A stretch of 64,000 nt of DNA from Elusimicrobia bacterium GWA2_62_23. GTDB lineage: Bacteria > Elusimicrobiota > Elusimicrobia > Elusimicrobiales > UBA9959. The DNA is taken from contig MGTV01000029.1 of assembly GCA_001799635.1 (NCBI GenBank), forward strand, positions 65,309 to 129,308, given 5' to 3'. A model generated the notes under the pieces. That model was not told the DNA's origin. It was given only the letters and a program-made list of their open reading frames with translations, and made no database searches. The position numbers and the translations under genes are program-made. Below, piece by piece: positions 2,119 through 42,170 of this stretch (its first letter is position 1; the number at the start of each line of letters is the position of its first letter).

Positions 2119-2134
2119 CTTTTAGCGGGGAGGG

Positions 2135-5037: not shown

Positions 5038-5094
5038 GTTCTCCCCTATTGATGTCTATATGATATCCTCTTTTGCCCCCGTTAGGCAAATTGC

Positions 5095-5212: not shown

Positions 5213-5228
5213 GTTCGGCCCTGACATT

Positions 5229-6038: not shown

Positions 6039-6127
6039 CAGGCTGTTGTGCGCTAGAGAGTCATGGCGGCCGGTGGCTTGGCGTGGAGAGGGGCGGAAGG
6101 ATAATGATAGAATAAGAGCTGTAATAT

Positions 6128-7674: not shown

Positions 7675-8789
7675 GCAAACAGGTAAAAGTTCCCTTCGCC
7701 GACCTGCACGCCCAGTACCTCAATATAAAGAAAGAAATGGACGCCGCCATAGCCGGGGTCATAGGCTCCTCCGCTTTCATCCGCGGGCCCTATGTGGACG
7801 CTTTTGAAAAAGAATTCGCCGCGCTGATAGGCGCGCCGCATTGCGTGTCCGCCGCCAACGGCACCGACTCGCTCTATATAGCCATGCGGGCGCTGGGCGT
7901 GAAGCCGGGCGACGAAGTTATAGTGCCGGCGCATTCCTGGATAGCCACCAGCGAGACCGTGACGCAGGCCGGCGGCACCGTGGTGTTCTGCGATACCGAC
8001 GAGGATACTTTTACCATAGACCCCGCGCTGATAGAGGCCAAAATAACCCCGCGCACGGTCGGCATAATACCGGTGCATCTTTACGGGCAGGCCGCCGACA
8101 TGGGGCCCATAATGGAGACTGCGGCCCGGCACCGCCTCTGGGTGCTGGAAGACTGCGCGCAGGCGCACCTGGCGGCCTGGAACGGCCGCACCGTGGGCAC
8201 CTTCGGCGCGGCCGCCTCCTTCTCTTTTTACCCGGGCAAGAACCTGGGCGCCATGGGCGACGCCGGGGCGCTGGTAACGGCCGACGGCGTGCTGGCCGAG
8301 CGCATGGCCATGCTGGCCCGCCACGGCGGGCTGGTGAAGAACGAGCACCGCATCGAGGGCGTGAACAGCCGCCTGGACGGCCTGCAGGCCGCGGTGCTGT
8401 CGGTAAAAATGAAACATCTCAGGAAATGGACCGCCGAGCGCAGGAAACTCGCCGGCGTTTATGACCGGGAGCTGTCCGGTATAGAAGGTCTGGAGATACC
8501 GATAGTGGCCGGCGGCCGCGAGCACGTTTACCATATTTACGCCTTGCGCCATCAGCGCCGCGACGAGCTGAAGAAATTCCTGGCCGAGCGTGGCATAGAG
8601 ACGGTGATAAATTATCCGGTGGCCCTGCCTTTCCTGCCGGCCTACGCCCGCCTGGGCGCGCGGCCCGAGGATTTTCCTAATGCCTACAGGCACCAGTCCA
8701 CGGTGCTGTCGCTGCCGCTGTTCCCGGAGATGACCCCTGAACAGCAGGCCGCGGTGATAGACGCGGTAAAGACCTTCTGCCGCGGCTGA
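7671..8789 (+). CDS. DegT/DnrJ/EryC1/StrS-family PLP sugar aminotransferase (WbpE-like)
   Basis: 372 aa with ANGTDSLYIAMRALGV and SFYPGKNLGAMGDAGA (PLP-lysine region). There is a 4-nt overlap with the acetyltransferase gene. Confidence 0.9.
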   Translation: MSKQVKVPFADLHAQYLNIKKEMDAAIAGVIGSSAFIRGPYVDAFEKEFAALIGAPHCVSAANGTDSLYIAMRALGVKPGDEVIVPAHSWIATSETVTQAGGTVVFCDTDEDTFTIDPALIEAKITPRTVGIIPVHLYGQAADMGPIMETAARHRLWVLEDCAQAHLAAWNGRTVGTFGAAASFSFYPGKNLGAMGDAGALVTADGVLAERMAMLARHGGLVKNEHRIEGVNSRLDGLQAAVLSVKMKHLRKWTAERRKLAGVYDRELSGIEGLEIPIVAGGREHVYHIYALRHQRRDELKKFLAERGIETVINYPVALPFLPAYARLGARPEDFPNAYRHQSTVLSLPLFPEMTPEQQAAVIDAVKTFCRG

Positions 8790-8805
8790 CTCCGGGCGGC
8801 AGGAT

Positions 8806-8845
8806 AAAGAAGAAGGGCCGGTCCGTACCGGCCCTTCTTCTTTTA
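8806..8845. terminator. Hairpin terminator between convergent genes
   Basis: A perfect 16-bp stem, AAAGAAGAAGGGCCGG (8806-8821) / CCGGCCCTTCTTCTTT (8828-8843), with a 6-nt loop and a T-rich 3' side. Confidence 0.6.
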
Positions 8846-8858
8846 CTTGTCAGGAGCG

Positions 8859-9584
8859 CTAATACGCGGGGGCGTGCTCATGCCAGGCGTAGATGAGAGA
8901 GCCGCCCTTGAGCTGGTTGATTAGGCGCGTGCGCACGCCCATCTCCACAGCCGGGCAGCCCCAGCTGCGGCCGAGGGGAACGTTGGCGGGCGAAACATAA
9001 GGCGCGCCGTGCACCACTATGAACCTGGCGAAGGCGTTGCTGTTGGAATCGCTCAGGCCGTAGAGGACCAGGGAATAGCCGTTCTCCCCGGTATAGGTCT
9101 TGCCGGTGAGGAACAGGCCTAAAGAGGTGGCGTGGGAGCCTTGGTCGTTGGAAAAGAGCCCGGCGTAACCGGTGTGCAGCGGGTCGGACCCGCGGCCGTG
9201 GGCCACCAGGAACGCTTCCACCTGCCCGGTCTTCATGTCGGCCACGAAAAATCTTTTTTCATTGGCGTGGCGGGTATAGTCTATCACCGACAGGTAGCGC
9301 GTATTGCCGAGGTCCCCCAGGTTGGCGCGGTAATAATTAAGCGCGGCCGCCAGCGGGCGCGGCGGGATCAGGCCCTGCGGGTCCACGTAGGAATAGTCGG
9401 TATTGTAGTAGGACAGTTTTGGCGCTGGCGGGGCGGGCAGTTCGGCGGAGGGGAGGCGGAGCCACGCCAGGAGATCGTCCAGGGCCCCGGCGGCCGGGAG
9501 GCGGGCGCAAAGGCAGAGCAGCAGGCCCGAGGTTGCGAAGGCCGTTCTGAAGATGCGTAACATGGTGTTGCGGCTTGCCGGCAT
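8859..9584 (-). CDS. YkuD_2-type L,D-transpeptidase catalytic-domain family protein, secreted
   Basis: 241 aa with a signal peptide (LRIFRTAFATSGLLLCLCARLPAAG). It carries HGRGSDP, GSHATSLGLFLTG and GRSWGCPAV (catalytic-Cys context). An alternative start lies at 9563. Confidence 0.7.
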   Translation of the reverse strand: MPASRNTMLRIFRTAFATSGLLLCLCARLPAAGALDDLLAWLRLPSAELPAPPAPKLSYYNTDYSYVDPQGLIPPRPLAAALNYYRANLGDLGNTRYLSVIDYTRHANEKRFFVADMKTGQVEAFLVAHGRGSDPLHTGYAGLFSNDQGSHATSLGLFLTGKTYTGENGYSLVLYGLSDSNSNAFARFIVVHGAPYVSPANVPLGRSWGCPAVEMGVRTRLINQLKGGSLIYAWHEHAPAY

Positions 9585-9749
9585 AACTTAGGGATATGAT
9601 ACAAAAAAGGCGTTCAGGTTTTACCCGGGCCGGGATAAAGGGCCCAGCTCCGGGGGGGCCAAAAAGAACCGGACCTTAGGTACTTTCGGCTCATACGCGG
9701 GCAACCGGATATTTGTTTGAATTGTTATATGGTTTTCAAGGAAAATTAA

Positions 9750-10415
9750 ATGAATATCCTTCGCGCTGTTTTCACTATCGTGCTGCTGTTTTCCGGAGGC
9801 GCTTTCGCTTTCGACCTGCCCGGCCTGGAAAAGGGCGCCGCTCCGGCCCGCCTGCCGGAAGCCGGCCTGCCAGCCGCCGCTAACCCCGGCGACGCGCGCC
9901 TGGCCGCCCTGCGCGCCGAAGCCCTGGCGGACCCCGTGAAGTTTTTTGACGAACATACCCCGGCCGAGATAGGGCTGGCCTACGGGCTTCCCCCTGCCGC
10001 CCGCTACCGCATAGATAACGCCGCGGCCGCGAAGGCTTCTGTGCGGCTTATAGTGAACCTGACGGACCAGCGCCTGCTGGTGGTTTCTCCCGAGCTCAAC
10101 GGTGTCTTCAAGCTCTCCAGCGGCCTGGGTCCCGACCATCTTACTCCCGGCAGCGGCCGCTGCTACGCCCCTGATTTCATCGAGGAAATGCACTATTCCA
10201 GCCTTTACAACAAAGCCCCCATGCCCAATTCCATCTTCTTCAACGGCAATATCGCCATGCACGGCACCAACGCCGAGCAACTGCTGGGCCAGCCCGCCTC
10301 CCACGGCTGTATCCGCCTGTCCAAGGCGGACGCCAAGGCCGTCTACGGCGTAGTGAAAGCCCACGGCAAGGCCAATGCCAGCATCTGCGTAGTAGGGAAA
10401 ACTCCGGTAAAGTAA
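9750..10415 (+). CDS. L,D-transpeptidase (YkuD domain), secreted
   Basis: 221 aa with a signal peptide (MNILRAVFTIVLLFSGGAFA). The canonical active-site motif HGTNAEQLLGQPASHGCIRL is present. Confidence 0.85.
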   Translation: MNILRAVFTIVLLFSGGAFAFDLPGLEKGAAPARLPEAGLPAAANPGDARLAALRAEALADPVKFFDEHTPAEIGLAYGLPPAARYRIDNAAAAKASVRLIVNLTDQRLLVVSPELNGVFKLSSGLGPDHLTPGSGRCYAPDFIEEMHYSSLYNKAPMPNSIFFNGNIAMHGTNAEQLLGQPASHGCIRLSKADAKAVYGVVKAHGKANASICVVGKTPVK

Positions 10416-10436: not shown

Positions 10437-10469
10437 AAGAGGGCCGGTTTTGCCGGCCCTCTTCTTTTT
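10437..10469. terminator. Rho-independent-type hairpin between convergent genes
   Basis: An 11-bp stem, AAGAGGGCCGG (10437-10447) / CCGGCCCTCTT (10453-10463), followed by CTTTTTG. Confidence 0.6.
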
Positions 10470-10481: not shown

Positions 10482-12341
<1,860 letters not shown>

Positions 12342-12342: not shown

Positions 12343-13962
12343 TCAGTTCTTTCCTTTTGCGGCGTAAATGTTTATCCGGGCCGGCTTGAAGAAGAGCTCC
12401 GGCATTTTTTCGCGCAGTGCCAGCCCGAAGAGCGAGAAGTTTTCCCTGAACTCCGCGGCCGGCGCGTAGCCGGCCTTGTCCAGAGCGGCCAGCAGGCCGG
12501 GTTCGTCGGTGAAAGCCGTCTCTATATCGGTGGTCACTACCAGGTCGGGGCGCGCCTGGCCGAGCAGGTCGTAGCCCACGGCGTTGCGCCAGTCACCGGA
12601 GCCCAGCGGAACCAGCCTGACGTTTCGCAGGCCCTCGTAGGATGGATGCCGGTATTTGCGCTCCAGCACCCCGGGGCCGAACCAGGAGGGCTCGCGCAGC
12701 AGGCCTATGACCGCGCCGGGGCGGGCGTTGGCCAGGAGCCAGCCGGAGGCGGAGTCGCGGCTGTCCTCTTTGAGGGCGAGCCGCGCCGCGGCGGCCTGCA
12801 GTACCAGCAGGTTGACCAGTACCAGCAGGGGCAGCGCTTTAGCCGCCCTGAATTTTTCCCCGGCTTCGGCGAGAAGGCGCGCGCCCAGCAGGGCCAGGAA
12901 CGGCAGTACCGGCAGCATGCGGCCCGAAGAGGCGGCCTGCCCGGCTTTTACGAAGATGACCAGCAGCGGCAGCGTCCAGGCGGCCAGCAGCAGGTCGTTC
13001 TTGGTGCGCCTGAAGGCGGACAGGCCCAGGCCGGCCAGCGAGGCGGCCGCCACGCCCACGCCCAGACCTTCGCGCAGCGAAGCCCAGACCTTTAGCAGGC
13101 CGCTGAATATTCCCGCCGAGGAACCGTTGGAAACTGTATTCGCCAGCGCCCCGGTGCCCTTTATAAAACCGGGATAATCCAGCAGGGCGTAGGGGGTGCC
13201 TATGAAAAACGCGGAGGCGGCGGCCGGAACGGCGAGCAGCAGCGGCTTCATTTCGCGGCGGCGGGGGCCCAGCAGGTGGGCGGCGAGGAAAGGCAGCAGC
13301 AGCGGGGCCGCGGAATAGCGTGTGGAGACGGCCAGCCCCGTTGTGACGGCGGCGAGCAGGTAGAACCTGGTCTCGCCGGAATCCATGAGCCGCTTGAGCA
13401 GCAGCAGGGTGAGGACTATCCAGAAAAGGCCCGGCACGTTCATTACCAGGTAGCGGGAAAAGATGGAATGCGCCGGGGCCAGCGCCAGGAACAGCCCGGC
13501 CAGAAAGCCGGCAGCGGGGCCGAACATGGCGGTTCCGAGCAGGCAGAGCGCCGCGGCGGCGAGGGCGCCGTACAGGGCGGACAAGGCACGGCCGGCCAGG
13601 TAGAACTTGCCCCATTCGCCGGGGTTGGCGTAATAGAAGTCCTTGTCCGGGGTGAGGGTGAGCAGGCCGGCCACAGAAAGAGCCTTGAGCGAGGCCGCGA
13701 AAGTGTACAGGTGGAAGGTGCCTTCGCCCAGCGCGTAAGGGGTTTTCTCCCCGACGGGGTTGAAGTCCAGCTTGCCCGGGTCCATGGACTGCAGGTGGGC
13801 TATGGGCGTATTCTCGTCGCAGTTGTAGGTGTTGACGTGGTGTTGGTTGGGCAGGCCCCAGCGCAAGCCGGCCAGCGAGGCCAGCAGCGCGGCCAGGACT
13901 ATGACGGCCAGCCTGGTTCTCGTGGATTTGGGCATAAGCGTGGGGGCTGTTGCGAGCGCCAT
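12343..13962 (-). CDS. GT-C fold membrane glycosyltransferase (GT39/83, ArnT/PMT_2-like)
   Basis: 539 aa. The polytopic N-terminal two-thirds resembles ArnT/PMT, and the C-terminal domain is soluble. Confidence 0.75.
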   Translation of the reverse strand: MALATAPTLMPKSTRTRLAVIVLAALLASLAGLRWGLPNQHHVNTYNCDENTPIAHLQSMDPGKLDFNPVGEKTPYALGEGTFHLYTFAASLKALSVAGLLTLTPDKDFYYANPGEWGKFYLAGRALSALYGALAAAALCLLGTAMFGPAAGFLAGLFLALAPAHSIFSRYLVMNVPGLFWIVLTLLLLKRLMDSGETRFYLLAAVTTGLAVSTRYSAAPLLLPFLAAHLLGPRRREMKPLLLAVPAAASAFFIGTPYALLDYPGFIKGTGALANTVSNGSSAGIFSGLLKVWASLREGLGVGVAAASLAGLGLSAFRRTKNDLLLAAWTLPLLVIFVKAGQAASSGRMLPVLPFLALLGARLLAEAGEKFRAAKALPLLVLVNLLVLQAAAARLALKEDSRDSASGWLLANARPGAVIGLLREPSWFGPGVLERKYRHPSYEGLRNVRLVPLGSGDWRNAVGYDLLGQARPDLVVTTDIETAFTDEPGLLAALDKAGYAPAAEFRENFSLFGLALREKMPELFFKPARINIYAAKGKN

Positions 13963-14026
13963 TTAAATATACAATAATTAACATAGCGTAACAACCGGCC
14001 GCTCTCCGGAGAGCCGGCTTAAAACT

Positions 14027-15460
14027 ATGAAAGTCCTGCTTATCAACTTGCCGAGGGTCGGCGGCTTCCCGGTAGTAAGGGAAGAGCGCTTCGAGCATAA
14101 GGATTTCGAGATGGTCCAGCCGCCGCTGGGCCTGCTGTACTGCGCCTCCATGCTGCGCCAGGCCGGGCACGAGACCGCGCTGATAGACGCCAACGCCCTG
14201 GACCTGCCCGCCGCCGAAGTCGGCGCCCGCGCGGCGGCTTTCAGGCCCGACATTATTTTCGCGCGGGCGGCCTTCGACGCGCAGGACGCCGACGCCGCCG
14301 TGCTGGCCGGACTGAAGGCGGCGGTCCCCGGCGTCAAGGTGCTCACCCGCAACAAGATACTTTCCGACGTGCCCGCCCTGCGCGACGCCTTCCTGGCGCG
14401 CCATTCCCATATAGATTATTTCCTGCTGATGGAGCCGGAGTCGGTGATAGCGGCCGTCTGCGAGGCCCTAGCGGGCGGGCGCCGGCCGCCGGCCGCGGCC
14501 TGGCTGGAGGGGGGCAAGGTAGTAGAAGGCGCCCCGGCCGAAGCGCCCGGCCAGCTCGACGATTTCCCTTTCCCGGCCTACGACCTGCTGGAGACCATGG
14601 CCCCCTACAAGACCAGCCTGTTCGGCCCGGTCTATACGCTGGTGCTCTCCAGCCGCGGCTGCCCTTTCCAGTGCAGTTTCTGCGCCTATTGCCGCACCAA
14701 GTACCGCGAGCGCTCGGCCGAGAACGTGGTGGCGGAACTGAAGTGGCTGAAAGAGACCATAGGTCTCAAGAATTTCGTTTTCTTCGACGACACTATTTCC
14801 CTCAGGCGCGACCGCACGCTGAAGATCTTCGAGCTGATGCGGCAGAGCGGCCTGGGCCTGAAGTTCGGCATCTGCACCCGGGTGGACCTGATAGACGAGG
14901 AGATGGTCCTGGCCGCCAAGGCCGCCGGCTGCGAGGAACTCGGCTTCGGCGTGGAGTCCGGTTCCCAGAAGATCCTGGACATAGCCAAAAAGGGCATAAA
15001 GCTGGACCAGGTGCGCGAGGCTTTCCGCCTCTGCAAAAAACACAAGATCAAATCCATAGCGTCGGTGATCCTCGGCCTGCCCGGCGAGACCGAAGAGACG
15101 GTGCGCGAGACTTTCCGGTTCATCAAGGAAATAGACCCGTACTACTGCCAGTACGCCATAGCCGTGCCTTTCCCCAACACCGAGGTTTACCGCTACTACG
15201 ACGAGCGCGGCCTGATCCTCACGCGCGACTGGACCAAGTACAACCCGCTGGAGGTCACGCCGGTGTTCCGCACCGAAGCCCTGAGCGCGGAGCGCCTCGC
15301 CGAGCTGAAGCGCCAGGGCTACATCAAGTTCCTGCTCAGGCCTTCCTTCATCCTGTCCAAGATAGAGCCGCTCAACCTGCTGTGGAACATAAAGGGCTTC
15401 CTCATGTACGCCCACCGGCTGGCCGGGCTGCTCCTGGGCGGCAGGAAATACGTCCGCTGA
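14027..15460 (+). CDS. B12-binding-domain (class B) radical SAM protein, copy 1
   Basis: 477 aa. MKVLLINLP opens a Rossmann-like N-terminal domain, followed by SSRGCPFQCSFC (CxxxCxxC). Confidence 0.9.
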   Translation: MKVLLINLPRVGGFPVVREERFEHKDFEMVQPPLGLLYCASMLRQAGHETALIDANALDLPAAEVGARAAAFRPDIIFARAAFDAQDADAAVLAGLKAAVPGVKVLTRNKILSDVPALRDAFLARHSHIDYFLLMEPESVIAAVCEALAGGRRPPAAAWLEGGKVVEGAPAEAPGQLDDFPFPAYDLLETMAPYKTSLFGPVYTLVLSSRGCPFQCSFCAYCRTKYRERSAENVVAELKWLKETIGLKNFVFFDDTISLRRDRTLKIFELMRQSGLGLKFGICTRVDLIDEEMVLAAKAAGCEELGFGVESGSQKILDIAKKGIKLDQVREAFRLCKKHKIKSIASVILGLPGETEETVRETFRFIKEIDPYYCQYAIAVPFPNTEVYRYYDERGLILTRDWTKYNPLEVTPVFRTEALSAERLAELKRQGYIKFLLRPSFILSKIEPLNLLWNIKGFLMYAHRLAGLLLGGRKYVR

Positions 15461-16578
15461 TGAAATTCTGCGTCCTCTCTTCCCTTACCGCCCGCAGCGG
15501 CAGCTCCATCCGCAACCGCGGCGTCTGCCGCGCCCTCGCCGGGCTGGGGCACAGCGTGACTTACCTGGAGCCGCTGGCCCCCGGTGAGGAAGCCGCGCTG
15601 GCCGAGGGTTTCTCCCACGAACCGGTGCCGGTGAGGTCCGCCCGCCCGCTATTCTGGATGCTGCCGGCCGCGCTGGCCAACCTGGCCCGCCTTCGCGAGC
15701 TGAAGCCGGCCGCGGTCCTGGTGATGAAACCTTTTCCGCACACGGCCGTGCCGGCCCTGCTGGCCCGCCGGAACTGCGGCGCCAAAGTGGTGGTGGATTT
15801 CGACGACCTGGACTCGGGCTACGCCGCCGGGGCCCTCGCCCGCCGGCTGCTGGAATGGATGCAGCTGTTCTTTATCCGCCGGGCGGACCTGGTCTGCGTG
15901 CATAACGGCGCCCTGCGCGAGTATCTTTCCTCCCGCGGCGTGGCGCCCGAAAAGATCTCCTGGCTCGGCCAGGGCATAGAGCCGGAAAAGTACGCCGCCC
16001 GGCCCGGCGCCGGGCCCGCGCTGCCGCCAGGCTGGGAAAGTGCCACCGTACTGGTCTACGCCGCCCACCTGGGGCCGGCGGCCGCCCTCGAACCCTTGTT
16101 CGAGATCGTGGCCGGACTGGCCGGGAATTTCCGCCTCCTCGTGATAGGCGGCGGGGCGCAGTTGGAGGAATTCAAGGCGCTGGCGCGGCGGCTGGGGGCC
16201 GAAGGGCGCACCCACTTCACCGGCTACCTGTCCCATCCCGAGACCATAGCGTGGCTGCGGCTGGGGCAGATAGCGCTGAATTACCTTTACGAAGAGCAGC
16301 CGCGGGACCGGTTCCGTTCGCAGATAAAGATCCGGGAATACCTGGCGCTCGGCCTGCCGGTGGTGTCCTCGCGGGGCGGCGACATAGAACTGTTCAGGGA
16401 ATTCGTGGAGATAGCTGGAGATAAAACGGATTTCGCCGGCAGGATCATGAAGCTCGCCGCGGACCTGCCTTCGGCCGCGGCCAGGGCGGCGCGGGGCCGC
16501 GTCTGGGTGACTGAAAAATATTCATGGCCGGGCCTCGTCAGGGAATGGCTGGCCGGGTCGGGGCTGGACAAGTTATGA
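15460..16578 (+). CDS. GT-B fold glycosyltransferase (GT4-like)
   Basis: Starts at the internal ATG at 15460 (ATGA overlap with the rSAM stop). The track ORF 14671..16578 is an upstream frame extension. The sequence runs MKFCVLSSLTARSGSSIRNRG...KIREYLALGLPVVSS. Confidence 0.8.
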   Translation: MKFCVLSSLTARSGSSIRNRGVCRALAGLGHSVTYLEPLAPGEEAALAEGFSHEPVPVRSARPLFWMLPAALANLARLRELKPAAVLVMKPFPHTAVPALLARRNCGAKVVVDFDDLDSGYAAGALARRLLEWMQLFFIRRADLVCVHNGALREYLSSRGVAPEKISWLGQGIEPEKYAARPGAGPALPPGWESATVLVYAAHLGPAAALEPLFEIVAGLAGNFRLLVIGGGAQLEEFKALARRLGAEGRTHFTGYLSHPETIAWLRLGQIALNYLYEEQPRDRFRSQIKIREYLALGLPVVSSRGGDIELFREFVEIAGDKTDFAGRIMKLAADLPSAAARAARGRVWVTEKYSWPGLVREWLAGSGLDKL

Positions 16579-17543
16579 CCAAAGTTTCAGTGGTAGTGCC
16601 GGTTTACAACGGGGCCAGGACCATAGGCCTGGCCCTGGACGCCCTGCTGGCGCAGACGCACAAGGGCCTGGAGATCATAGTGGCAGACGACGGGTCCACC
16701 GACGCCACGCCGGAGCTGGTGAAAGGGCGGCCGGTGAAATACCTGCGGCAGGAGAACGCCGGGCCGGCCAAGGCGCGCAACCTGGGCTGGCGCGCGGCCG
16801 CCGGCGAAATAATTTTCTTCACCGACGCGGACTGCGTTCCGGAACCGGCGTGGGTGGAAAAACTCCTGCGCCTGTTCGAAGAGCCGGGCGTGGCCGCCGC
16901 CGGCGGAACCTACGGCCTCCGCAACCCGGAAAGCCTGGTGGCGCAGTGCATCCATTACGATATCCAGTACCGGCATTCCCGGCTGGGGCGCGAAGTCTCC
17001 TATATCGGCTCCTTCAGCCTGGCCGTGCGCAGGACCGCCCTGGAGCAGGTAGGCGGTTTCGACGAGACCTTCCGCATAGCCTGCGGCGAGGACGCGGACC
17101 TGTCGTACCGGCTGTTCAAGGCCGGCCATAAGTTCCGCTTCGATAAAGAATGCTGGGTGGCCCATCACTTCCCCACGGGCGCGGTGCATTTCGTGCGCCA
17201 GCAGTTCTGGCGCGGCTACTGGATCATGAAGCTGCTGGCCAAGCACGGCAGCACCGGCTCTCCGGGCTACAGCAACTTCCTCGACGCGCTGCAGCCGCCG
17301 CTGTTCGGCCTGGCGCTGGGCGCTCTCGCCGCCGTGCCTTTCGCGCCTGGTCTGCTGCCCGCGGCGCTGACGCTCAACCTGCTGGCCTTCTTCGCTAATT
17401 TCCCGTCGGTGCTGTTCGGCGTGCGCGCTTCCGGTTCTCCCAGGCTGTTCTTTTCGGCCGTGCTGTTCTATTTCCGCGGCTTCGCCTGGGTGCTGGGCCT
17501 GGCTTACGGCGCCGGTTTCCTGTTCAAAGGCGGCAATAAATGA
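16575..17543 (+). CDS. GT2 glycosyltransferase with C-terminal TM segments
   Basis: Starts at the ATG at 16575 (ATGA overlap). It shows VSVVVPVYNGARTI, IVADDGSTD and a FTDADC DxD motif, with a hydrophobic C-terminal third. Confidence 0.8.
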   Translation: MTKVSVVVPVYNGARTIGLALDALLAQTHKGLEIIVADDGSTDATPELVKGRPVKYLRQENAGPAKARNLGWRAAAGEIIFFTDADCVPEPAWVEKLLRLFEEPGVAAAGGTYGLRNPESLVAQCIHYDIQYRHSRLGREVSYIGSFSLAVRRTALEQVGGFDETFRIACGEDADLSYRLFKAGHKFRFDKECWVAHHFPTGAVHFVRQQFWRGYWIMKLLAKHGSTGSPGYSNFLDALQPPLFGLALGALAAVPFAPGLLPAALTLNLLAFFANFPSVLFGVRASGSPRLFFSAVLFYFRGFAWVLGLAYGAGFLFKGGNK

Positions 17544-18964
17544 AGATCCTGCTTTTAAACCCTCCAGCCAGCACCAGCCTGTCCTCCACGCTGCCCGATA
17601 AATACACGTCGGTGGATATCGGCTATTATCCGCCGCTCGGCCTCATGTACCTGGCCGGTTACCTCAGGGAGCGGACAAAACATACCGCGGCCATCGCCGA
17701 CATGGTGGCCGAGCGCCTGACGCTCGCGGACCTGGCGGCCCTGCTGGCCAGGCACGCTCCTGACGCCGTGGGCGTCTACTGCGCCAGCGCCACCGCCAAT
17801 AGCGTGCGCAAGATCTGCGCCCGGCTGAAAGAGCTGGCGCCCGCCCTGCCGGTGGTGGTAGGCGGGCCGCACGCCGATATTTATCCGGAAGAGACCCTGG
17901 AATGGTCTTCCGTGGACTACGTCATCCCCGGAGAAGGCGAGATGACGCTCGCCGAACTGCTGGAGTGCCTCGCCGCCGGCGGAAACACCTCCGCTGTCCC
18001 CGGCGTCTGGTCCAGCAGGGAAGGCAAGGCCGTCTCGGGCGGCAAAAGACCCGCCGTCACCGACCTGGACTCGCTGCCCTTTCCCGCGCGCGACCTGACG
18101 GACTATAAGCGCTACCACTCGGCCATAGGCAAGGACAAGGTGGCCACCACGCTGATGACCAGCCGCGGCTGCCCCTACCGCTGCAATTTCTGCTACGTGC
18201 AGTACGACGTCCGCTACCGGGCCCGCAGCGCCGCCAACGTGCTGGCCGAAATAGAGGACTGCCTGAAGCTCGGCATCCGGGAGTTCTTCTTCTTCGACGA
18301 GATCTTTACGGTGGATAAGAAGCGCGTGCTGGCTATCTGCGGGGAGATAGTGAAACGCGGGCTGTACATCACTTTCGAGGTGCGCTCACGCATCAATACC
18401 ATGGACTCCGAAATGCTGGCCGCCCTGAAGAAGGCCGGCTGCGTGCGGATCTCCTACGGCGTGGAATCGGCCTGCGACGAAGTGCTCAAGGCGATGAACA
18501 AGGGCATAACGGCCGCCCAGGCGCGAGAAGTGACCCGCCTTACGCAGCAGGCGGGGATAGAGGTGTTCCTGGATTTCATGCTGGGCTATCCCGGCGAGAC
18601 CGAGGAGCAGATGCGCCGCACCATAGCTTTCGCCCGCGAGCTGGACCCGGATTACGTGCAGTTCGCCATCACGGTGCTCATTCCGGCCACGCAGATCTAC
18701 CGCGACGCGCTCGCGTCGGGGCAGCTGAGAACCGATTTCTGGAAAGAAGTGGCCAAGAACCCGCCGGACCTGATAGTGCCGCCGCTCGCGTCGGATAAGT
18801 ACGGCCGCGAGTTCCTGGAGAAGATGTTCAGCCAGGCCTACCGGAGCTTCTATTTCCGGCCCGGCTACATCTTCAAGCGGCTCAGGAGGATCTCCTCGCT
18901 GACCGAGCTGCTGCGCCACGCCAGGGGCGCGGTGCAGCTGTTCTCCGGCAGCAGGGAAGGTTAA
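17540..18964 (+). CDS. B12-binding-domain (class B) radical SAM protein, copy 2
   Basis: 474 aa with MKILLLNPP and TSRGCPYRCNFC. It has an ATGA overlap with the GT2 gene. Confidence 0.9.
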   Translation: MKILLLNPPASTSLSSTLPDKYTSVDIGYYPPLGLMYLAGYLRERTKHTAAIADMVAERLTLADLAALLARHAPDAVGVYCASATANSVRKICARLKELAPALPVVVGGPHADIYPEETLEWSSVDYVIPGEGEMTLAELLECLAAGGNTSAVPGVWSSREGKAVSGGKRPAVTDLDSLPFPARDLTDYKRYHSAIGKDKVATTLMTSRGCPYRCNFCYVQYDVRYRARSAANVLAEIEDCLKLGIREFFFFDEIFTVDKKRVLAICGEIVKRGLYITFEVRSRINTMDSEMLAALKKAGCVRISYGVESACDEVLKAMNKGITAAQAREVTRLTQQAGIEVFLDFMLGYPGETEEQMRRTIAFARELDPDYVQFAITVLIPATQIYRDALASGQLRTDFWKEVAKNPPDLIVPPLASDKYGREFLEKMFSQAYRSFYFRPGYIFKRLRRISSLTELLRHARGAVQLFSGSREG

Positions 18965-20379
18965 CGGCGGCGGCCCAGCAGGTAGGCGAAGAAACTGCGC
19001 GCGCCGTAGAGTTTGCGGACCAGGTCCGCCGGCGAGGCAAAGAGCATGCGCAGCAGCTGCGAGGGTCTCAGGTAGAATTCCTTGAGTCCCCTGTCTATAA
19101 AATAATCGATCTCGGCCTTGGAGAGCTGCGGGTAACTGAGCAGCGTCACCTGCTCTCGCTCCGGGCTCACCCAGTCCTTCCATTCCTTCGGCACCAGGTA
19201 GCCCTTCTCTTTAGCCCAATCGTAAAGTTCCGTGCCCGGGTAAACGCAGATCCCGGAGAACTGCACCGTGTCCAGCGGCAGGCTCTTGGCGAACTCCACC
19301 GTGGCCGTGGCCGACTCGCGCGTCTCGCCGGGGGCGCCTATCATGAAGCAGCCGTGGATGGTGAACCCCAGCCGGGCGGCTTCGGCGGCGAATTTTTTGG
19401 ACTGCTCCAGGGTAATGCCTTTCTTCACGGCGTCCAGCGCCGCCTGCGTGCCGAACTCGAACCCCACCATGAGCATGCGGCAGCCGGCCTCGCGCATCAG
19501 CGGCAGGAGCGCCAGGTCCAGGTCCACGCGGGTATTGCAGCTCCAGGTGGCTTTCAGCCCGCGCCGGTGGATCTCTTCGCAGAGGGCGCGCATCTGCACG
19601 GCCGAGGCGGTAAGCGTGTCGGTCTCGAACATGATCTCGCGGAGCTGCGGGAAAAGCTTCAGGTCGTATTCCATCTCGTCCACGATGGCGGCGGCGGAGC
19701 GCGCGCGCATATGGCGGCCGGCCATGGACTCGGTGGTGTCGCGGCAGAAGGTGCAGCGGCCCAGGCAGCCGCGCCCGGAGATGAGCGTGAGGAAAGGGAA
19801 ACGCTTGCCGGCGTCGCGGTACCACTCGGGTTTGATGTGGCGCCAGGCGGGGAAAGGCAGGGTGTTCACGTCCACGGGGGCGCCGTAGGGATTGTTGACC
19901 GGCGCGCCGGCGGAAAGCCAGCTCAGGCCGGGGATCTCCGCCGGGGGCTTGCCGTCGGCCAGGTCCTGCAGGATATAGTCGTATTCTCCCCTGGCGATGA
20001 AATCCACCGCGCCGGCGGCCCGGGCGAAGGTGTCGTCGGGCAGGGCGGTGACGTGCGGCCCTACCAGGACCGTGCGGCAGCCGGAGAGTTCCCTGGCCAG
20101 CCGGGCGTGGGCGATGTCGGAATCTATGGACGGGGTGGTGGTGTGCACCACGGCCAGTTCCGGCCTGGCCTGGCGGATAACGTCCTTGACCTGGTCCAGG
20201 CCCAGGTTCAGGGCCGCGGCGTCGGAGAAGACCACGTCGTGGCCGGCGCGTTCCAGCACGGCTACGGCGGTAAGCAGCCAGTCGGGATGGCGCTGCACCC
20301 GCCCGCGGGATTTGGCCGCCCAGCGGGCGGACCTGCAGAAATCGTCCCCGTAGGGAGGGTTGAGCACCAGTATTTTCAT
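18961..20379 (-). CDS. B12-binding-domain (class B) radical SAM protein, copy 3
   Basis: Starts at MKILVLNPP (ATG 20379-20377, ATGA overlap with the upstream GT2 stop). It carries SGRGCLGRCTFC. Its stop overlaps the stop of copy 2 at TTAA. Confidence 0.9.
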   Translation of the reverse strand: MKILVLNPPYGDDFCRSARWAAKSRGRVQRHPDWLLTAVAVLERAGHDVVFSDAAALNLGLDQVKDVIRQARPELAVVHTTTPSIDSDIAHARLARELSGCRTVLVGPHVTALPDDTFARAAGAVDFIARGEYDYILQDLADGKPPAEIPGLSWLSAGAPVNNPYGAPVDVNTLPFPAWRHIKPEWYRDAGKRFPFLTLISGRGCLGRCTFCRDTTESMAGRHMRARSAAAIVDEMEYDLKLFPQLREIMFETDTLTASAVQMRALCEEIHRRGLKATWSCNTRVDLDLALLPLMREAGCRMLMVGFEFGTQAALDAVKKGITLEQSKKFAAEAARLGFTIHGCFMIGAPGETRESATATVEFAKSLPLDTVQFSGICVYPGTELYDWAKEKGYLVPKEWKDWVSPEREQVTLLSYPQLSKAEIDYFIDRGLKEFYLRPSQLLRMLFASPADLVRKLYGARSFFAYLLGRRR

Positions 20380-21092
20380 CGGGTAAATCTGTACTTCACT
20401 ATGTTCCAGGCCACTATGAAGCCGTCCAGCCACTTTATCTTCTTGCCCTGCGCGTAGGAGCGCGGGTGGTAGTCCACGTCCACCTCGGTGATGGGGTAGC
20501 GGCCGGTCTTGAGCACCTTGGCGGTGATCTCGGCGCAGAATTCGAAGCCCTTGGACTTTATGCCCAGTTCGTTGAACAGCCGCACCGGCATCACCTTGTA
20601 GCCGCAGGCCTGGTCGGTCAGGCGCGAACCGTAGAGCAGGTTGGTGAGGAAGGTGACTATCCTGTTCGCCAGCAGGGAGAGCAGGCGGATCTTGCCGAAG
20701 CCCTTGCGGCTCCTGGACCCGAACACGACTTCGGCCTTCTTCTCCAGGATGGGGGCCAGCAGCGGCAGGTAGTCGCCCGGGTCCAGTTCCAGGTCGGCGT
20801 CCTGCACTATCAGGTAGTCGCCCGTGGCGGCGGCGGCGCCCGTACGGACCGCCGCCCCCTTGCCCAGGTTGTGCTCGTGGTAGAGCACCCTTATTTTTTC
20901 AGTATCGCAAGGGAACCGCTCTTTGAGCAGTTCCCGGGTCCCGTCGGTGGAGCCGTCGCATACGATCAGAAGTTCCGTCTTTACCGGCAGCGGCAGGGCC
21001 GCTACCTTGTCTATTACCTGGAGGACGGTGTTCTTCTCGTTGTAGCAGGGTATTATTACCGAGAGCTTAAGCAACGGCCCTGCCTGGGTCAT
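20376..21092 (-). CDS. GT2 polyprenyl-phosphate-type glycosyltransferase (DPM1-like, soluble), paralogue A
   Basis: Starts at MTQAGPLLKLSVIIPCYNEKNTV (ATG 21092-21090, overlapping the DegT stop by 1 nt). It shows CDGSTDGT and VQDADLE. The longer track ORF is an Arg-rich extension into the DegT gene. Confidence 0.85.
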   Translation of the reverse strand: MTQAGPLLKLSVIIPCYNEKNTVLQVIDKVAALPLPVKTELLIVCDGSTDGTRELLKERFPCDTEKIRVLYHEHNLGKGAAVRTGAAAATGDYLIVQDADLELDPGDYLPLLAPILEKKAEVVFGSRSRKGFGKIRLLSLLANRIVTFLTNLLYGSRLTDQACGYKVMPVRLFNELGIKSKGFEFCAEITAKVLKTGRYPITEVDVDYHPRSYAQGKKIKWLDGFIVAWNIVKYRFTR

Positions 21093-22225
21093 TACCTCAC
21101 GGCCTCTTTGAGCGAATTCTTGACCGCGTCGGTCACGGCCTTGATCTGCTCGTCCGAGAGCTCGGGGTACATGGGCAGCGAGAACACGGTGTCCTGCACC
21201 GCGTCGCAGACCGGCAGGTCGCCGCGCTTGTAGCCGAGGTGCTTGTAGGCCTCCTGCAGGTGCAGCGTGATCGGGTAGTAGATCTGGTTGGCTATCCCCT
21301 GCTCGGTCAGGTGCTTCTGCGCGTTGTCGCGCTTGGCCTTGCTGTCGAAGCGGATGGTGTAGTAGTTGAACGAGTGGCGCGCGTTGGCGGGCACGAAGGG
21401 GGTCACGCAGACGCCCTGGAGGGCGGCGGCGTACTTTTCGGCCACTTTGTTGCGCATCTCGGTCCACTTCTCCACGTGCTTGAGGCGGATGGAGAGGATG
21501 GCGGCCTGCACGGTGTCGAGGCGGCTGTTGAAGCCTTCCATCTCGTGGTGGTAGCGCACCTTGCTGCCGTGGTTGCGCAGCTGGATGAGCGTGTCGTAGA
21601 TCTTCTGGTCGCTGGTGACTATCGCGCCGCCGTCGCCGAAGGCGCCGAGGTTCTTGGCCGGGAAGAAGCTGTAGGTGCCGCAGTGGCCTATGGAGCCTAG
21701 CATCTTCCAGTCCGTGCCGCCCATTTTGTACTTGCCGGTGAAGGCCTGCGCGGTGTCCTCGATGACTATGAGGTTATGCTTCTTGGCGAGCGCCATGAGG
21801 GCGTCCATGTCGCAGGGGTGGCCGTAGAGGTGCACCGGGGCGATGGCGCGGGTCTTGGAGGTGATCTTCTTCTCGACGGATTTGGGGTCGAGGCAGAAAG
21901 TGACGGGGTCGATGTCGGCGAACACCGGCACCGCGCCCACCTGGCTGATGGTCTCGGTGGTGGCGATGAAGGTGAAGGGGGAGGTGATGACCTCGTCGCC
22001 GGGCTTCACGCCGCTGGCGAGGTAGGCCATGCGCAGCGCGTCGGTGCCGTTGGCCACGCCCACGCAGAACTTGGCGCCGTTATGGGCGGCGAATTCGGCT
22101 TCGAACTTCTTTACTTCCTCGCCGAGGATGAAATTGGCTTTATTGAAAACGTTCTTTACGGCCGCTTCTATCTCGTCCTTGATGGGGGGATAGCCGGCGA
22201 GCATGTCTACCATGGGTACTTTCAT
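21092..22225 (-). CDS. DegT/DnrJ/EryC1/StrS-family PLP sugar aminotransferase (second copy; ArnB-like)
   Basis: 377 aa with ANGTDALRMAYLASGV and SFFPAKNLGAFGDGGA. A GGAGGA SD lies upstream of the ATG. Confidence 0.9.
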   Translation of the reverse strand: MKVPMVDMLAGYPPIKDEIEAAVKNVFNKANFILGEEVKKFEAEFAAHNGAKFCVGVANGTDALRMAYLASGVKPGDEVITSPFTFIATTETISQVGAVPVFADIDPVTFCLDPKSVEKKITSKTRAIAPVHLYGHPCDMDALMALAKKHNLIVIEDTAQAFTGKYKMGGTDWKMLGSIGHCGTYSFFPAKNLGAFGDGGAIVTSDQKIYDTLIQLRNHGSKVRYHHEMEGFNSRLDTVQAAILSIRLKHVEKWTEMRNKVAEKYAAALQGVCVTPFVPANARHSFNYYTIRFDSKAKRDNAQKHLTEQGIANQIYYPITLHLQEAYKHLGYKRGDLPVCDAVQDTVFSLPMYPELSDEQIKAVTDAVKNSLKEAVR

Positions 22226-22345: not shown

Positions 22346-23062
22346 ATGAAAACCACCATAGTCATCCCGTCCTATAATGAGATGCGCACCCTGCCGGCGG
22401 TGCTGAAGGTCCTGGCCGGCGTAGCGCTGGACAAGGAAGTGATAGTGGTGGACGACGGCTCCAAGGACGGCACCCGGGAATGGCTGGACAAGGCCATAGC
22501 CGCCAAAGAGTTCCCCTACGACCTGAAGGTCATAAAACACGAGGTCAACAAGGGCAAGGGCGGCGCCCTCATCACCGGGTTCAACGCCGCGGCCGGTGAC
22601 ATAACCATAGTGCAGGACGCGGACCTGGAGTACGACCCCAACCAGATCCCGGGCCTGGTCCGCCCGATAGAAGAAGGCCGGGCGGACGCGGTTTTCGGCT
22701 CGCGCATGCTCTCCGGCAAGGCCGAAACTTACAGCCAGCTATACCTGGCCGGCAACAAGTTCCTCTCTTTCCTGGTGTCCCTGCTGTTCGGCCTGCGGAT
22801 GACCGACTCCTACACCTGCTACAAGGCTTTCCGGACGCCGCTGCTGCGCCGGCTGCGCCTGACCTCCAACGGCTTCGAAATAGAGGCGGAACTTTCCTGC
22901 AAGACGGCTTTCCTGGGCCTGCGCTTCGCCGAACTGCCCATCGTTTACACCTCCCGCTCCAGGCAGGAAGGCAAGAAGATCAATTACAGGGACGCCGTGA
23001 AAGGCGTGCTGAAAATACTCTGGCTGCGGCTCTCGCTGCGCCGGGCGGATCTTAAAGAATGA
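22346..23062 (+). CDS. GT2 polyprenyl-phosphate-type glycosyltransferase (DPM1-like), paralogue B
   Basis: 238 aa with TIVIPSYNE, VVDDGSKDGT and VQDADLEYD. It is collinear and clearly similar to the 20376-21092 protein. Confidence 0.85.
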   Translation: MKTTIVIPSYNEMRTLPAVLKVLAGVALDKEVIVVDDGSKDGTREWLDKAIAAKEFPYDLKVIKHEVNKGKGGALITGFNAAAGDITIVQDADLEYDPNQIPGLVRPIEEGRADAVFGSRMLSGKAETYSQLYLAGNKFLSFLVSLLFGLRMTDSYTCYKAFRTPLLRRLRLTSNGFEIEAELSCKTAFLGLRFAELPIVYTSRSRQEGKKINYRDAVKGVLKILWLRLSLRRADLKE

Positions 23063-23928
23063 GAGCACTTATAATAGGCGCGGACGGACAGGTGGGGGGC
23101 GTGCTCTCTTCGCTGTGCGTGCGGCGCCGCATAGAAGTTTATGGCACCGGGCTCGGAGGCCAGGGCTACCTGCATCTGAACCTCACCTCGCCCGCCACCA
23201 TCGCTCCCGCTTTCGAAAAGGCCAAACCCGACCTGGTGCTGCTCTGTTCGGCCATGACCGCCGTGGACGGCTGTGAAAAGAACCCTGAGCTGGCCCGCCG
23301 GGTAAACGCCGAGGGCCCGGCTTTAGTGGCCGAGGAATGCCGCAAGGGCGGGGCCAAGCTGGTTTATTTCTCCACCGAGTACGTATTCGACGGCAAGAAC
23401 GGGCCCTACGGCGAGGAAGACCCGGTGAACCCCATCAGCGTTTACGGTCGCACCAAGCTGGAAGGCGAGCGGGTCTGCCTGGCCGTGAAGGGCGCCCTCT
23501 CGGTGCGCACCACGGTGGTGTACTCCCATTCCCCGGAGTCCAAGAATTTCATCATGCAGTTGATCAGCAATTACCGCGCCGGCGCCAAAATGCGCGTACC
23601 TTCGGACCAGTATTCCAACCCCACTTACGCGCCCGAGCTGGCGGCCGCCGTGCTGGACCTGGCGGCGGCCGACGCCTCCGGAATTTACAACGTGACGGGC
23701 CCGGACTGGCTCAACCGCCATGAGTTCGCGCTGAAGGCCTGTGCCGCCTTCGGGTTCGACCCGGCTTTCATCGAGCCCCGGCTCACTTCGGAGCTGGGCC
23801 AGGCCGCGGCGCGGCCGCTCACCGCCGGGCTGAAGACGGACAAGCTGGCCGCCGCGCTGGGCCGCCGGCTGCCGCCCGTGGACGCCAGCCTGGCCAAGAT
23901 CGCCGCAATCCTTAAACAGTATGAATGA
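23059..23928 (+). CDS. rfbD: dTDP-4-dehydrorhamnose reductase (RmlD family)
   Basis: 289 aa. MRALIIGADGQVG is the N-terminal Rossmann motif, and STEYVFDG and YGRTK form the SDR Y-x3-K context. Confidence 0.8.
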   Translation: MRALIIGADGQVGGVLSSLCVRRRIEVYGTGLGGQGYLHLNLTSPATIAPAFEKAKPDLVLLCSAMTAVDGCEKNPELARRVNAEGPALVAEECRKGGAKLVYFSTEYVFDGKNGPYGEEDPVNPISVYGRTKLEGERVCLAVKGALSVRTTVVYSHSPESKNFIMQLISNYRAGAKMRVPSDQYSNPTYAPELAAAVLDLAAADASGIYNVTGPDWLNRHEFALKACAAFGFDPAFIEPRLTSELGQAAARPLTAGLKTDKLAAALGRRLPPVDASLAKIAAILKQYE

Positions 23929-24958
23929 CCTGCTGAGAAATTCCTGGCTTTACGCCCTGGCCTTCGTGCTGCCGCTGGTCCTTTCGCTGGCGCTGACGCC
24001 GGTGCTGCGGGCGCTGGCGCTGCGCTTCGGCCACCTGGACAGCCCCACCGACATCAAGACGCACAAGGCGCCTACTCCGCTCCTGGGCGGGGCGGCCATC
24101 TTCATAGCTTTCACGCTTTCGCTCCTGGCCATGCGCTTCTACACGTCCTTCCCCACCGGCACGCTGCGCGACCTGCGCGTTATCCTGCTGGGCGGCGGCG
24201 TGATGTTCACGCTGGGCTTCATAGACGACCTGTACAAACCGCACGGGCTGGGGGTAAAGACCAAGTTCGCCGTGCAGTTCGCGGTGGCGGCGTTCACCGC
24301 CCTGTACGGCATCCGCATAAATTTCATCCAGCCGGACTACCTGGCCTTCGCCCTGACGGTGCTCTGGATAGTGGGCGTCTCCAACGCTTTCAACATCATC
24401 GACATCATGGACGGCCTTTCGGCGGGGCAGGCGGCCCTGGCGGCCTTCGGCTTCCTGCTCATCGCCTTCCCGTCGGAGTCCATCTACGTGAACTTCGCCT
24501 CGGCCTCGCTGGCAGGCGCCGCGGCCGGCTTCCTGCCGTACAACTTCTCCAAGCGCCTCAAGATCTTCATGGGCGACTCGGGCAGCCTGCTCTGCGGCTT
24601 CGTGCTGGCCCTGGTGGCGCTCGGCACGCGCTACAGCGACGTGAACCCGCTCGGCGTGTACGCGCCGCTGTTCATCCTGGCGGTGCCCATCTACGACACC
24701 ATCTTCGTTTCCGTGCTGCGCCTGCGCCGCGGGCATTCCCCGTTCATCGGCAGCAAGGACCACTTCGCGCTGCGGCTCGAGAAGATCGGCTTCTCCCGGC
24801 GGCAGGTGGTGCGGCTGGCCTCCCTGGCCACGCTGGCGCTGGTCCTGTTCGCCTGGCTGATGACGCAGGTGCCGCTCGCCTGGGGCATAGTCATAGCCGG
24901 CATCCTCGGCCTCGAATCCGTCCTCATCGGCATCGCCATCGCCAAGATCAAAATATAG
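23921..24958 (+). CDS. Polyprenyl-phosphate HexNAc-1-phosphate transferase (MraY/WecA/WbpL family)
   Basis: 345 aa polytopic membrane protein with the family signatures IDDLYK and NAFNIIDIMDGL. Confidence 0.85.
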   Translation: MNDLLRNSWLYALAFVLPLVLSLALTPVLRALALRFGHLDSPTDIKTHKAPTPLLGGAAIFIAFTLSLLAMRFYTSFPTGTLRDLRVILLGGGVMFTLGFIDDLYKPHGLGVKTKFAVQFAVAAFTALYGIRINFIQPDYLAFALTVLWIVGVSNAFNIIDIMDGLSAGQAALAAFGFLLIAFPSESIYVNFASASLAGAAAGFLPYNFSKRLKIFMGDSGSLLCGFVLALVALGTRYSDVNPLGVYAPLFILAVPIYDTIFVSVLRLRRGHSPFIGSKDHFALRLEKIGFSRRQVVRLASLATLALVLFAWLMTQVPLAWGIVIAGILGLESVLIGIAIAKIKI

Positions 24959-42159: not shown

Positions 42160-42170
42160 AAGAGGACGTT

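Follow-up and report, generated by a model that had tools for sequence, protein, structure and literature searches.

Three orphan radical-SAM families and their glycosyltransferases form a recurrent cassette in bacteria and archaea that may tailor cell-envelope sugars

A 64-kb stretch of the genome of Elusimicrobia bacterium GWA2_62_23 (contig MGTV01000029.1, positions 65,309 to 129,308; 64,000 nucleotides, hereafter the window) encompasses three genes for radical S-adenosylmethionine (SAM) enzymes, denoted R1, R2 and R3, that are intermingled with genes for glycosyltransferases (GT). The set consisting of R1, R2, R3, a GT4-family glycosyltransferase and a membrane-anchored GT2-family enzyme (GT2a), with or without an AsnB-type amidotransferase, a small GT2 and a membrane glycosyltransferase of the GT-C fold, recurs in Elusimicrobiales relatives and in genomes with a GC content of 29–37%. 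We propose that these genes comprise a cassette, shared by bacteria and archaea, that tailors an envelope glycan or glycolipid, with the radical-SAM enzymes reworking the sugar rings of membrane-anchored intermediates, and we would put the chances of this reading at about even. The product is probably an unusually modified cell-surface sugar made via an undescribed pathway: an earlier sequence-only reading of this DNA knew of no described pathway of this kind, and in the literature we likewise found none, nor any publication on the cassette.

The core of the locus consists of two convergent operon-like units. Unit B, on the plus strand, comprises R1 (14027–15460, 477 aa, GCPFQCSFC at residues 211–219), GT4 (15460–16578, 372 aa; Pfam Glyco_trans_4_4 and Glyco_trans_1_4), GT2a (16575–17543, 322 aa; Pfam Glycos_transf_2, with C-terminal hydrophobic segments at residues 243–261 and 291–309) and R2 (17540–18964, 474 aa, GCPYRCNFC at residues 210–218). 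Unit C, on the minus strand, leads from a sugar aminotransferase of the DegT/DnrJ/EryC1 family (21092–22225, 377 aa; Pfam E = 6e-118) through a small soluble GT2 of the polyprenyl-phosphate type, GT2b (20376–21092, 238 aa), to R3 (18961–20379, 472 aa, GCLGRCTFC at residues 204–212). The radical-SAM proteins, GT4, DegT and AsnB are predicted to be soluble. The genes lie where the sequence-only reading had placed them, and its central observation, three proteins of this class translationally coupled to glycosyltransferases, is borne out, but the junctions are less uniform than the ATGA overlaps it described. As read off the sequence, 4-nt ATGA overlaps join GT4 to GT2a (16575–16578), GT2a to R2 (17540–17543) and GT2b to R3 (20376–20379), whereas R1 and GT4 (TGATG, at 15460) and DegT and GT2b (TAATG, at 21092) overlap by 1 nt each. 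The accompanying term “stoichiometrically coupled” was an overstatement, given that it was drawn from overlaps two of which, out of five, are only 1 nt long. R2 and R3 converge with an overlap of 4 nt (18961–18964). The reading frame of R3 extends to a GTG at 20433 (490 aa), but homologues of 470–476 aa favour the ATG at 20379. The N-termini are MKVLLINLP in R1, MKILLLNPP in R2 and MKILVLNPP in R3. A 92-nt tRNA-Arg(CCG) called by ARAGORN at 20124–20215 (+) is entirely contained within the coding sequence of R3, antisense to it, and is almost certainly spurious.

Sequence comparison indicates that R1, R2 and R3 are paralogues, as had been claimed, albeit ancient ones (28–32% mutual identity over the full length), each belonging to a widespread family of its own. 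All three pass the cut-off of the Radical_SAM domain (PF04055, 29.5 bits), with 103 bits for R1, 99.6 for R2 and 55 for R3 (E from 1e-14 to 2e-29), and the cysteines of the CxxxCxxC motif (C212/216/219 in R1, C211/215/218 in R2 and C205/209/212 in R3) are invariant within each family. The B12-binding domain (PF02310, cut-off 32.1 bits) is matched over its full extent by R2 (85.5 bits) and is also detected in R3 (38.6 bits), whereas the match in R1 (33.6 bits) is marginal, spanning only profile positions 10–85 of 121, and the majority of the R1-family members have no PF02310 match at all. By domain content, the assignment to class B, that is, to B12-binding radical-SAM enzymes, is thus plausible for R2 and R3 and doubtful for R1, which appears to carry a degenerate B12-like N-terminal domain; a Rossmann-like N-terminal domain is visible in the predicted models of R1 and R3. 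R3 is the most conserved of the three, with 55–68% identity across phyla, including Asgard, DPANN and methanogen-group archaea, compared with 41–60% in the R1 family and 40–55% in the R2 family. Positions conserved in at least 95% of the sequences number 161 of the 472 in R3, 76 in R1 and 71 in R2, and the extreme conservation of R3 points to a substrate common to very different cells. Beyond the radical-SAM motif, R3 has four invariant cysteines (267, 281, 300 and 344) and R2 has three conserved ones (241, 267 and 301). One R1 homologue (P0356, 832 aa) contains intein and LAGLIDADG domains (PF14890 and PF14528), so that an intein has been inserted in a radical-SAM enzyme.

The closest relatives of the window are found in metagenome-assembled Elusimicrobiales genomes (81–97% protein identity), two of which (loci L001 and L008) retain its layout and a third (L009) has the same gene families. 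Outside this group, locus L178 (GC 34%) encodes AsnB, R2, R3, R1, GT4 and GT2a in one co-directional operon (37, 39, 61, 56, 39 and 49% identity, respectively). Locus L175 (GC 37%) has the order GT4, R1, GT2a, a radical-SAM gene, R3, GT-C and GT2b, directly downstream of genes for a 930-aa STT3 oligosaccharyltransferase, a WecA-like transferase and a flippase; every PDB match listed for this STT3 is a eukaryotic STT3 or an archaeal chain of the STT3/AglB type, and L175 looks like an archaeal N-glycosylation locus. In locus L177 (GC 29%), GT4, R1 and another GT4 on one strand face GT2a, R3, a DUF2304 gene and a small GT2, together with an 11-helix membrane protein. The R1–GT4 pair recurs in L091, L175, L177 and L178, as read from the individual loci and not from a metagenome scan with the R1-family alignment, which was dominated by the generic GCPxxCxFC pattern and returned only distant class-B relatives (25–36% identity).

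The association of R3 with glycosyltransferases extends further. A tblastn match to the GT2a family lies near R3 in 28 of 87 loci, DPANN and methanogen-group archaea included, and under stricter clustering the two families are found together in 19 of the 43 loci outside housekeeping contexts, again with archaea among them. Across the 80 R3 loci, with the close relatives set aside, R3 is repeatedly accompanied by the GT2a family, which is the commonest conserved neighbour across phyla, by small GT2s similar to ArnC and DPMS (usually followed by DUF2304), by further B12-type radical-SAM paralogues and by GT4. The cultured Brachyspira catarrhinii has an R3 orthologue followed by a GT2 and class-I methyltransferases, Brocadia has a GT2 coupled to an R2-like gene and then a GT-C of the PMT_2 family, a spirochaete has an R1-like gene with GT4, and related arrangements reside on plasmid 1 of Lawsonia intracellularis and on a plasmid of Solidesulfovibrio carbinolicus. 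The minimal cassettes of other phyla include neither extra sugar-nucleotide genes nor an obvious partner reductase. Conservation of the synteny, a test set beforehand, thus holds in close relatives as well as in unrelated low-GC genomes.

Several variations on this theme were observed. In another Elusimicrobiota locus (L010, 4102–15158), six B12-type radical-SAM paralogues stand in a row, accompanied by a member of the GT2a family and a gene for a GT-C. The position of GT2b is a variable spot in a locus that is otherwise 81–97% conserved: the corresponding GT2 of the closest relatives is only 43–45% identical, and at least one of these relatives, L001, has two additional genes, for a short-chain dehydrogenase/reductase (SDR) of the epimerase/dehydratase type and a nucleotidyl (NTP) transferase, between DegT and GT2 (7616–9988). 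In many Omnitrophota-type loci (L043, L045, L049, L055, L057 and others), the gene directly 3' of the R3 orthologue, and co-directional with it, encodes a ferredoxin of 93 aa that has two [4Fe-4S] motifs and is a possible electron donor to the radical-SAM cluster.

In a scan against NCBIfam, none of the three proteins reaches the curated cut-off of any named family, HpnJ, BchE and AprD4 included, and with scores below the HpnJ and BchE cut-offs none can be assigned with confidence as an orthologue to an enzyme of a named pathway, in keeping with the sequence-only reading. The top match is nevertheless HpnJ in each case (TIGR03471, cut-off 577.6 bits), with 342.3 bits for R3, over the full length of the model, 208.5 for R2 and 167.4 for R1, and the second is BchE (TIGR02026, cut-off 481; R1 165, R2 179 and R3 99.5 bits); the AprD4-family model (NF033070, cut-off 500) gives 131.9 bits for R1, 139.3 for R2 and 75.5 for R3. 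R3 aligns with a genuine HpnJ, from the hpnI-hpnJ-hpnK locus of Mycetohabitans, over residues 1–467 (33% identity, E = 3e-82) and forms a sister clade of HpnJ in a neighbour-joining tree with BchE as the outgroup. By sequence, the closest solved structure to R1, R2 and R3 is AprD4 (PDB 6FD2, with bound paromamine; 22–25% identity). AprD4 is also the best fold match in the PDB for the AlphaFold2 models of R1 (mean per-residue confidence, pLDDT, 91.2; template-modelling, TM, score 0.77–0.81) and R3 (pLDDT 90.3; TM score 0.76–0.78), closely followed by the cobalamin enzymes MgmA, TsrM, CysS, OxsB and TokK. HpnJ acts on hopanoid-linked glucosamine, a membrane-anchored sugar, for which ring contraction has been proposed, and AprD4 is a radical-SAM diol dehydratase of an aminosugar that has the B12-type architecture but does not bind cobalamin. 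Given that these nearest characterised relatives both act on sugar rings, we suspect that R1, R2 and R3 do the same. Both are non-methylating enzymes, which argues against the “multiply C-modified” product of the sequence-only reading in the sense of C-methylation.

The glycosyltransferases of the locus suggest where such sugars could reside. The best solved relatives of GT2b are ArnC (E = 1e-14), DPMS and GtrB, which load sugars onto polyprenyl phosphate. A second small GT2 of this type, GT2c (22346–23062, +, 238 aa; identified with Pfam and NCBIfam), is 41% identical to GT2b, and both match models of the AglJ, PpgS, ArnC and DPM type below the equivalog cut-offs (for ArnC, 54–63 bits against 529). 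The GT2c family (cluster c5) recurs beside R3 orthologues, mostly followed by the gene for a DUF2304 membrane protein; no DUF2304 gene was found in the window. The GT-C-fold membrane glycosyltransferase (12343–13962, −, 539 aa, about 8 hydrophobic segments; PMT_2/ArnT-like, Pfam PMT_2 and PMT) belongs to a family (cluster c26) that recurs beside the cassette in Elusimicrobiota, and other PMT_2 or polytopic proteins occupy its place in L175, L088 and L177. Altogether, the window encodes four small GT2s of the polyprenyl-phosphate type and two GT-C enzymes, which suggests glycosylation via polyprenyl-phosphate-linked sugars that is finished outside the membrane. The second GT-C belongs to a separate polyprenyl-phosphate/GT-C module on the minus strand (1039–5037). 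This module consists of an ArnC-like GT2 that ends in membrane segments (4078–5037), a 648-aa fusion of a PMT_2 GT-C with a class-I SAM methyltransferase (2135–4081), an unusual combination, and a GT9 heptosyltransferase (1039–2118).

The genes that surround the core were named correctly in the sequence-only reading, as Pfam and hydropathy confirm. Unit A (−) runs from the GT-C gene to that of the AsnB-type glutamine amidotransferase (10482–12341, 619 aa; Pfam Asn_synthase and GATase_7), past the end of which there is a strong terminator-like hairpin (10437–10463). Unit D (+) comprises GT2c, an RmlD-like SDR reductase (23059–23928, 289 aa; Pfam RmlD_sub_bind), the gene of which overlaps GT2c by 4 nt, and a WecA/MraY-family polyprenyl-phosphate sugar-phosphate transferase (23921–24958, 345 aa, about 8 hydrophobic segments; Pfam Glycos_transf_4). 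Units A and B diverge from a 64-bp intergenic region (13963–14026) that contains, back to back on the two strands, the only two sigma-70-like matches between 10000 and 26000; these are consensus-level matches, and the gap probably holds the promoters of both the GT-C/AsnB and the R1 operons. The sugar-tailoring enzymes are no closer to named families than the radical-SAM enzymes: DegT falls short of all NCBIfam equivalog cut-offs (PseC 244, ArnB 200 against 631, and DesI 191 bits), the RmlD-like reductase scores 210 bits against 224 on TIGR01214, the WecA-like protein 113 against 326 on the WecA model, and AsnB 465 against 817 on the model of the XrtA/PEP-CTERM amidotransferase. AsnB probably amidates the carboxyl group of a uronic acid in the glycan.

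From the gene identities and their conservation in both domains, we infer a lipid-linked substrate and the following order of steps. GT4, the membrane-anchored GT2a and the small ArnC/DPMS-like GT2s would set sugars on a membrane carrier, most probably polyprenyl phosphate, whereupon the soluble R1, R2 and R3 would rework the sugar rings at unactivated carbons via the 5'-deoxyadenosyl radical. The GT-C enzyme would then hand the completed unit over to its final acceptor beyond the cytoplasmic membrane, a role that would fall to the oligosaccharyltransferase pathway in the archaeon, and DegT, the RmlD-like reductase and AsnB would furnish amino, deoxy and amide functions. By analogy, R3, being sister to HpnJ, most likely catalyses a non-methylating rearrangement, for example, contraction of a hexose to a cyclitol, and R1, with its similarity to AprD4 and its degenerate B12 domain, most likely a radical dehydration, that is, deoxygenation. 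Both the HpnJ and AprD4 affinities and the paucity of the minimal cassettes, where no accessory genes are present, favour such self-contained isomerisation, rearrangement or dehydration. Radical-SAM enzymes that act on membrane-anchored sugars have precedents in HpnJ, with its hopanoid-linked glucosamine, and in calditol synthase, with its tetraether-linked hexose. MoeK5 of the moenomycin pathway is a third. A bolder form of the proposal, in which the three enzymes edit the carbon skeletons of sugars on polyprenyl phosphate, by ring contraction to cyclitols, deoxygenation or C-branching, and GT-C or oligosaccharyltransferase enzymes install the units on bacterial lipopolysaccharide and archaeal N-glycans, is more tentative, and we consider it possible rather than probable.

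Several observations weigh against the proposal that the cassette tailors membrane-anchored sugars. For every member, it derives from comparison of sequences rather than from biochemistry, and the substrates could be nucleotide sugars before transfer rather than lipid-linked sugars. The tree that places R3 beside HpnJ is a neighbour-joining one without support values, R1 and R2 are about equidistant from HpnJ and BchE by model scores, and the reaction of HpnJ itself was deduced solely from a deletion mutant. GT2a resembles HpnI only with E = 0.012 over 95 residues, and there is no HpnK-type deacetylase at the locus. Moreover, 35 of the R3 orthologues (55–60% identity), which come from bins of Omnitrophota or carrying the label Planctomycetales, have aconitase, leuCD, aroC and ilv genes as neighbours and no gene for a glycosyltransferase closer than 10 kb, an Asgard R3 orthologue stands alone, and some R1 homologues adjoin a polysaccharide deacetylase or sit among housekeeping genes. 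The link between the radical-SAM enzymes and glycosyltransferases is therefore recurrent but, given the Omnitrophota-type orthologues, not universal. Finally, HpnJ and the C-methylases Fom3 and MoeK5 share a cluster in sequence-similarity networks drawn at stringent thresholds, so that proximity to HpnJ does not fix the chemistry and C-methylation stays a serious rival.

Under that alternative, R1, R2 and R3 would be cobalamin-dependent C-methyltransferases of the GenK, GenD1 or MoeK5 type that add methyl branches at unactivated sugar carbons of the growing glycan, which we regard as somewhat unlikely although well worth keeping in view. Methylases account for most of the characterised class-B radical-SAM enzymes, the B12-binding domain of R2 is complete, HpnJ falls in with Fom3 and MoeK5 as noted, and MoeK5 is listed among the C-methylases that add a single methyl group, in moenomycin A. 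MoeK5 acts on a sugar linked to a lipid phosphate, and the moe cluster also encodes AsnB-like amidotransferases, as does our locus, and several glycosyltransferases. The scores, however, do not lead in this direction: all the methylase models (KedN5, PhpK, HpnR and TIGR03975) remain far under their cut-offs for these enzymes (for R2, 78 against 700 with KedN5, 149 against 600 with PhpK and 113 against 650 with HpnR), and the best family matches, HpnJ and BchE, and the best structure, AprD4, are all non-methylases. The B12 domain of R1 is marginal and mostly undetectable in its family, and the several class-I SAM methyltransferases that adjoin related radical-SAM genes in Brachyspira, Lawsonia and a nanoarchaeote could already explain any methylation there.

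It is less likely still, and in our view improbable, that the enzymes modify the lipid part, be it the polyprenyl carrier or the tails or skeleton of membrane lipids, in the manner of HpnP/HpnR, GrsA/B or the ladderane-associated enzymes, while the glycosyltransferases build the head group. Several B12-domain radical-SAM enzymes are known to act on lipid skeletons, R2 obtains 140 bits with the rSAM_ladder_B12 model (lipid biosynthesis B12-binding/radical SAM protein), and the standalone R3 genes of Omnitrophota and Asgard would fit a general role in membrane lipids. Yet the cut-off of that model is 360 bits, with HpnR no closer, and the genes that recur alongside encode glycosyltransferases and enzymes that modify sugars, whereas lipid-synthesis genes do not recur. 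Furthermore, bacterial and archaeal membrane lipids differ, whereas their polyprenyl-phosphate sugar carriers are alike, and the cassette is found in both domains.

The possibility that R3 is nothing other than HpnJ, or that all three are cyclases of the BchE type, and thus belong to an established pathway for hopanoid side chains or bacteriochlorophyll, has very little to recommend it beyond the order of the NCBIfam matches, HpnJ first and BchE second for all three, and the label HpnJ that a submitter gave to one R3 homologue. The scores are well short of the curated cut-offs, R3 is just 33% identical to a genuine HpnJ, GT2a is not HpnI, and the R3 family is present in archaea, which are not known to make hopanoids. 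Among the 56 open reading frames (ORFs) of the window scanned with Pfam, there is no squalene-hopene cyclase, hpnH, hpnI or hpnK, and no bch gene. With scores under the cut-offs, partner genes missing and hopanoid genes lacking among these ORFs, the locus is neither a hopanoid nor a bacteriochlorophyll nor an apramycin pathway. A fortuitous neighbourhood of three enzymes with unrelated functions, to which the many R3 orthologues and some R1 homologues outside glycan loci might lend colour, is the least credible explanation of all, being contradicted by conserved synteny, with the same five to seven gene families found together in genomes of 29–64% GC in both domains and the start/stop overlaps kept.

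Several other features of the window lie apart from the cassette. Its GC content is 60–69% except at 4001–6000, where it drops to 0.54, against about 0.64 elsewhere; this low-GC stretch (5040–6130), which may be a foreign insertion, contains a single 269-aa ORF (5229–6038, +), the product of which has a hydrophobic N-terminus but matches nothing in Pfam. It is followed by a run of genes (6128–8789, +) for a GFO/IDH/MocA oxidoreductase, a hexapeptide acetyltransferase and a second DegT aminotransferase, which we take, from the domain content, to resemble the formation of a 3-acetamido sugar by enzymes of the WbpB/WbpD/WbpE type. The two groups of glycan genes are separated by a pair of genes for L,D-transpeptidases, YkuD_2 (8859–9584, −) and YkuD (9750–10415, +), and a YkuD gene is found at the same position in L001. 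A fluoride riboswitch (RF01734, 46098–46175, −; 41.6 bits against a gathering score of 34) is located directly upstream of a membrane gene of the Na+/H+-exchanger family (44935–46065, −). In the 767-aa formate-tetrahydrofolate ligase ORF (41541–43844, +), the Pfam match begins at residue 213, so that either the start codon is mis-called or the protein has a 210-aa N-terminal extension.

Radical-SAM tailoring of glycoconjugates is already known, and it is the three-enzyme composition and the conservation across domains that appear notable here. The B12-domain radical-SAM enzymes form a group of more than 220,000, most of which are functionally unassigned; the connection of three orphan families to each other and to glycosyltransferases, from Elusimicrobiota to archaea, provides a concrete, testable substrate setting. 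If lipid-linked sugars are indeed edited, chemistry of the HpnJ and calditol type would extend from two niche lipids to envelope glycans in general, unusual acid-stable, deoxy or branched sugars of uncultivated phyla might be explained, and new carbohydrate-editing catalysts would be gained. Should the bolder skeleton-editing form hold, it would reveal a layer of glycan chemistry, common to both domains, that has so far gone unrecognised, and would give three large orphan radical-SAM families their first functional assignment.

Among the known systems, the closest parallel is that of HpnI, HpnJ and HpnK, where a GT2 attaches hexosamine to a membrane lipid, after which the sugar ring is remodelled by a radical-SAM enzyme with a B12 domain; R3 is collinear with HpnJ from end to end and is its sister clade. 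The differences are that R3 remains under the HpnJ cut-off, that its invariant Cys267, Cys300 and Cys344 are absent from HpnJ, only Cys281 being common to both, and that there are three radical-SAM enzymes here against one, with the R3 family found also in archaea. We considered GT2a and R3 as a pair homologous to HpnI and HpnJ and rejected this for GT2a, which is unlike HpnI beyond the GT2 fold. In the AprD4/AprD3 system of apramycin 3'-deoxygenation, the radical-SAM enzyme has the same length and domain order as R1 and R3 and acts on an aminosugar ring, and its Rossmann-like N-terminal domain does not bind cobalamin, as may be the case in R1. AprD4, however, acts on a soluble aminoglycoside and requires a partner reductase, for which the sole candidate here, the RmlD-like SDR, is coupled to GT2c, adjoins no radical-SAM gene and is missing from the minimal cassettes.

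Calditol synthase (Cds) of Sulfolobus is proposed to contract a hexose linked to a tetraether lipid to a five-membered carbocycle, altering the properties of the membrane surface; it is confined to acidophilic archaea, and a cassette of glycosyltransferases and a GT-C is not described for it. MoeK5 of moenomycin and GenK and GenD1 of gentamicin are methylases of actinomycete antibiotic pathways, whereas the cassette described here is found in envelope-glycan loci and includes polyprenyl-phosphate GT2s and GT-C enzymes. For the glycosyltransferases, the counterparts are the ArnB/ArnC/ArnT and PpgS/Rv3632/Rv3779 relays, in which, as here, an aminotransferase, a small GT2 that loads polyprenyl phosphate and a GT-C that transfers the sugar outside the membrane are combined, with a DUF2304 helper encoded in many of the related loci. 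None of these relays includes a radical-SAM step, the ArnB and ArnC cut-offs are unmet here and the window is without DUF2304; with these reservations, and by analogy, the locus resembles a polyprenyl-phosphate relay of the Arn or PpgS type to which radical-SAM steps have been added.

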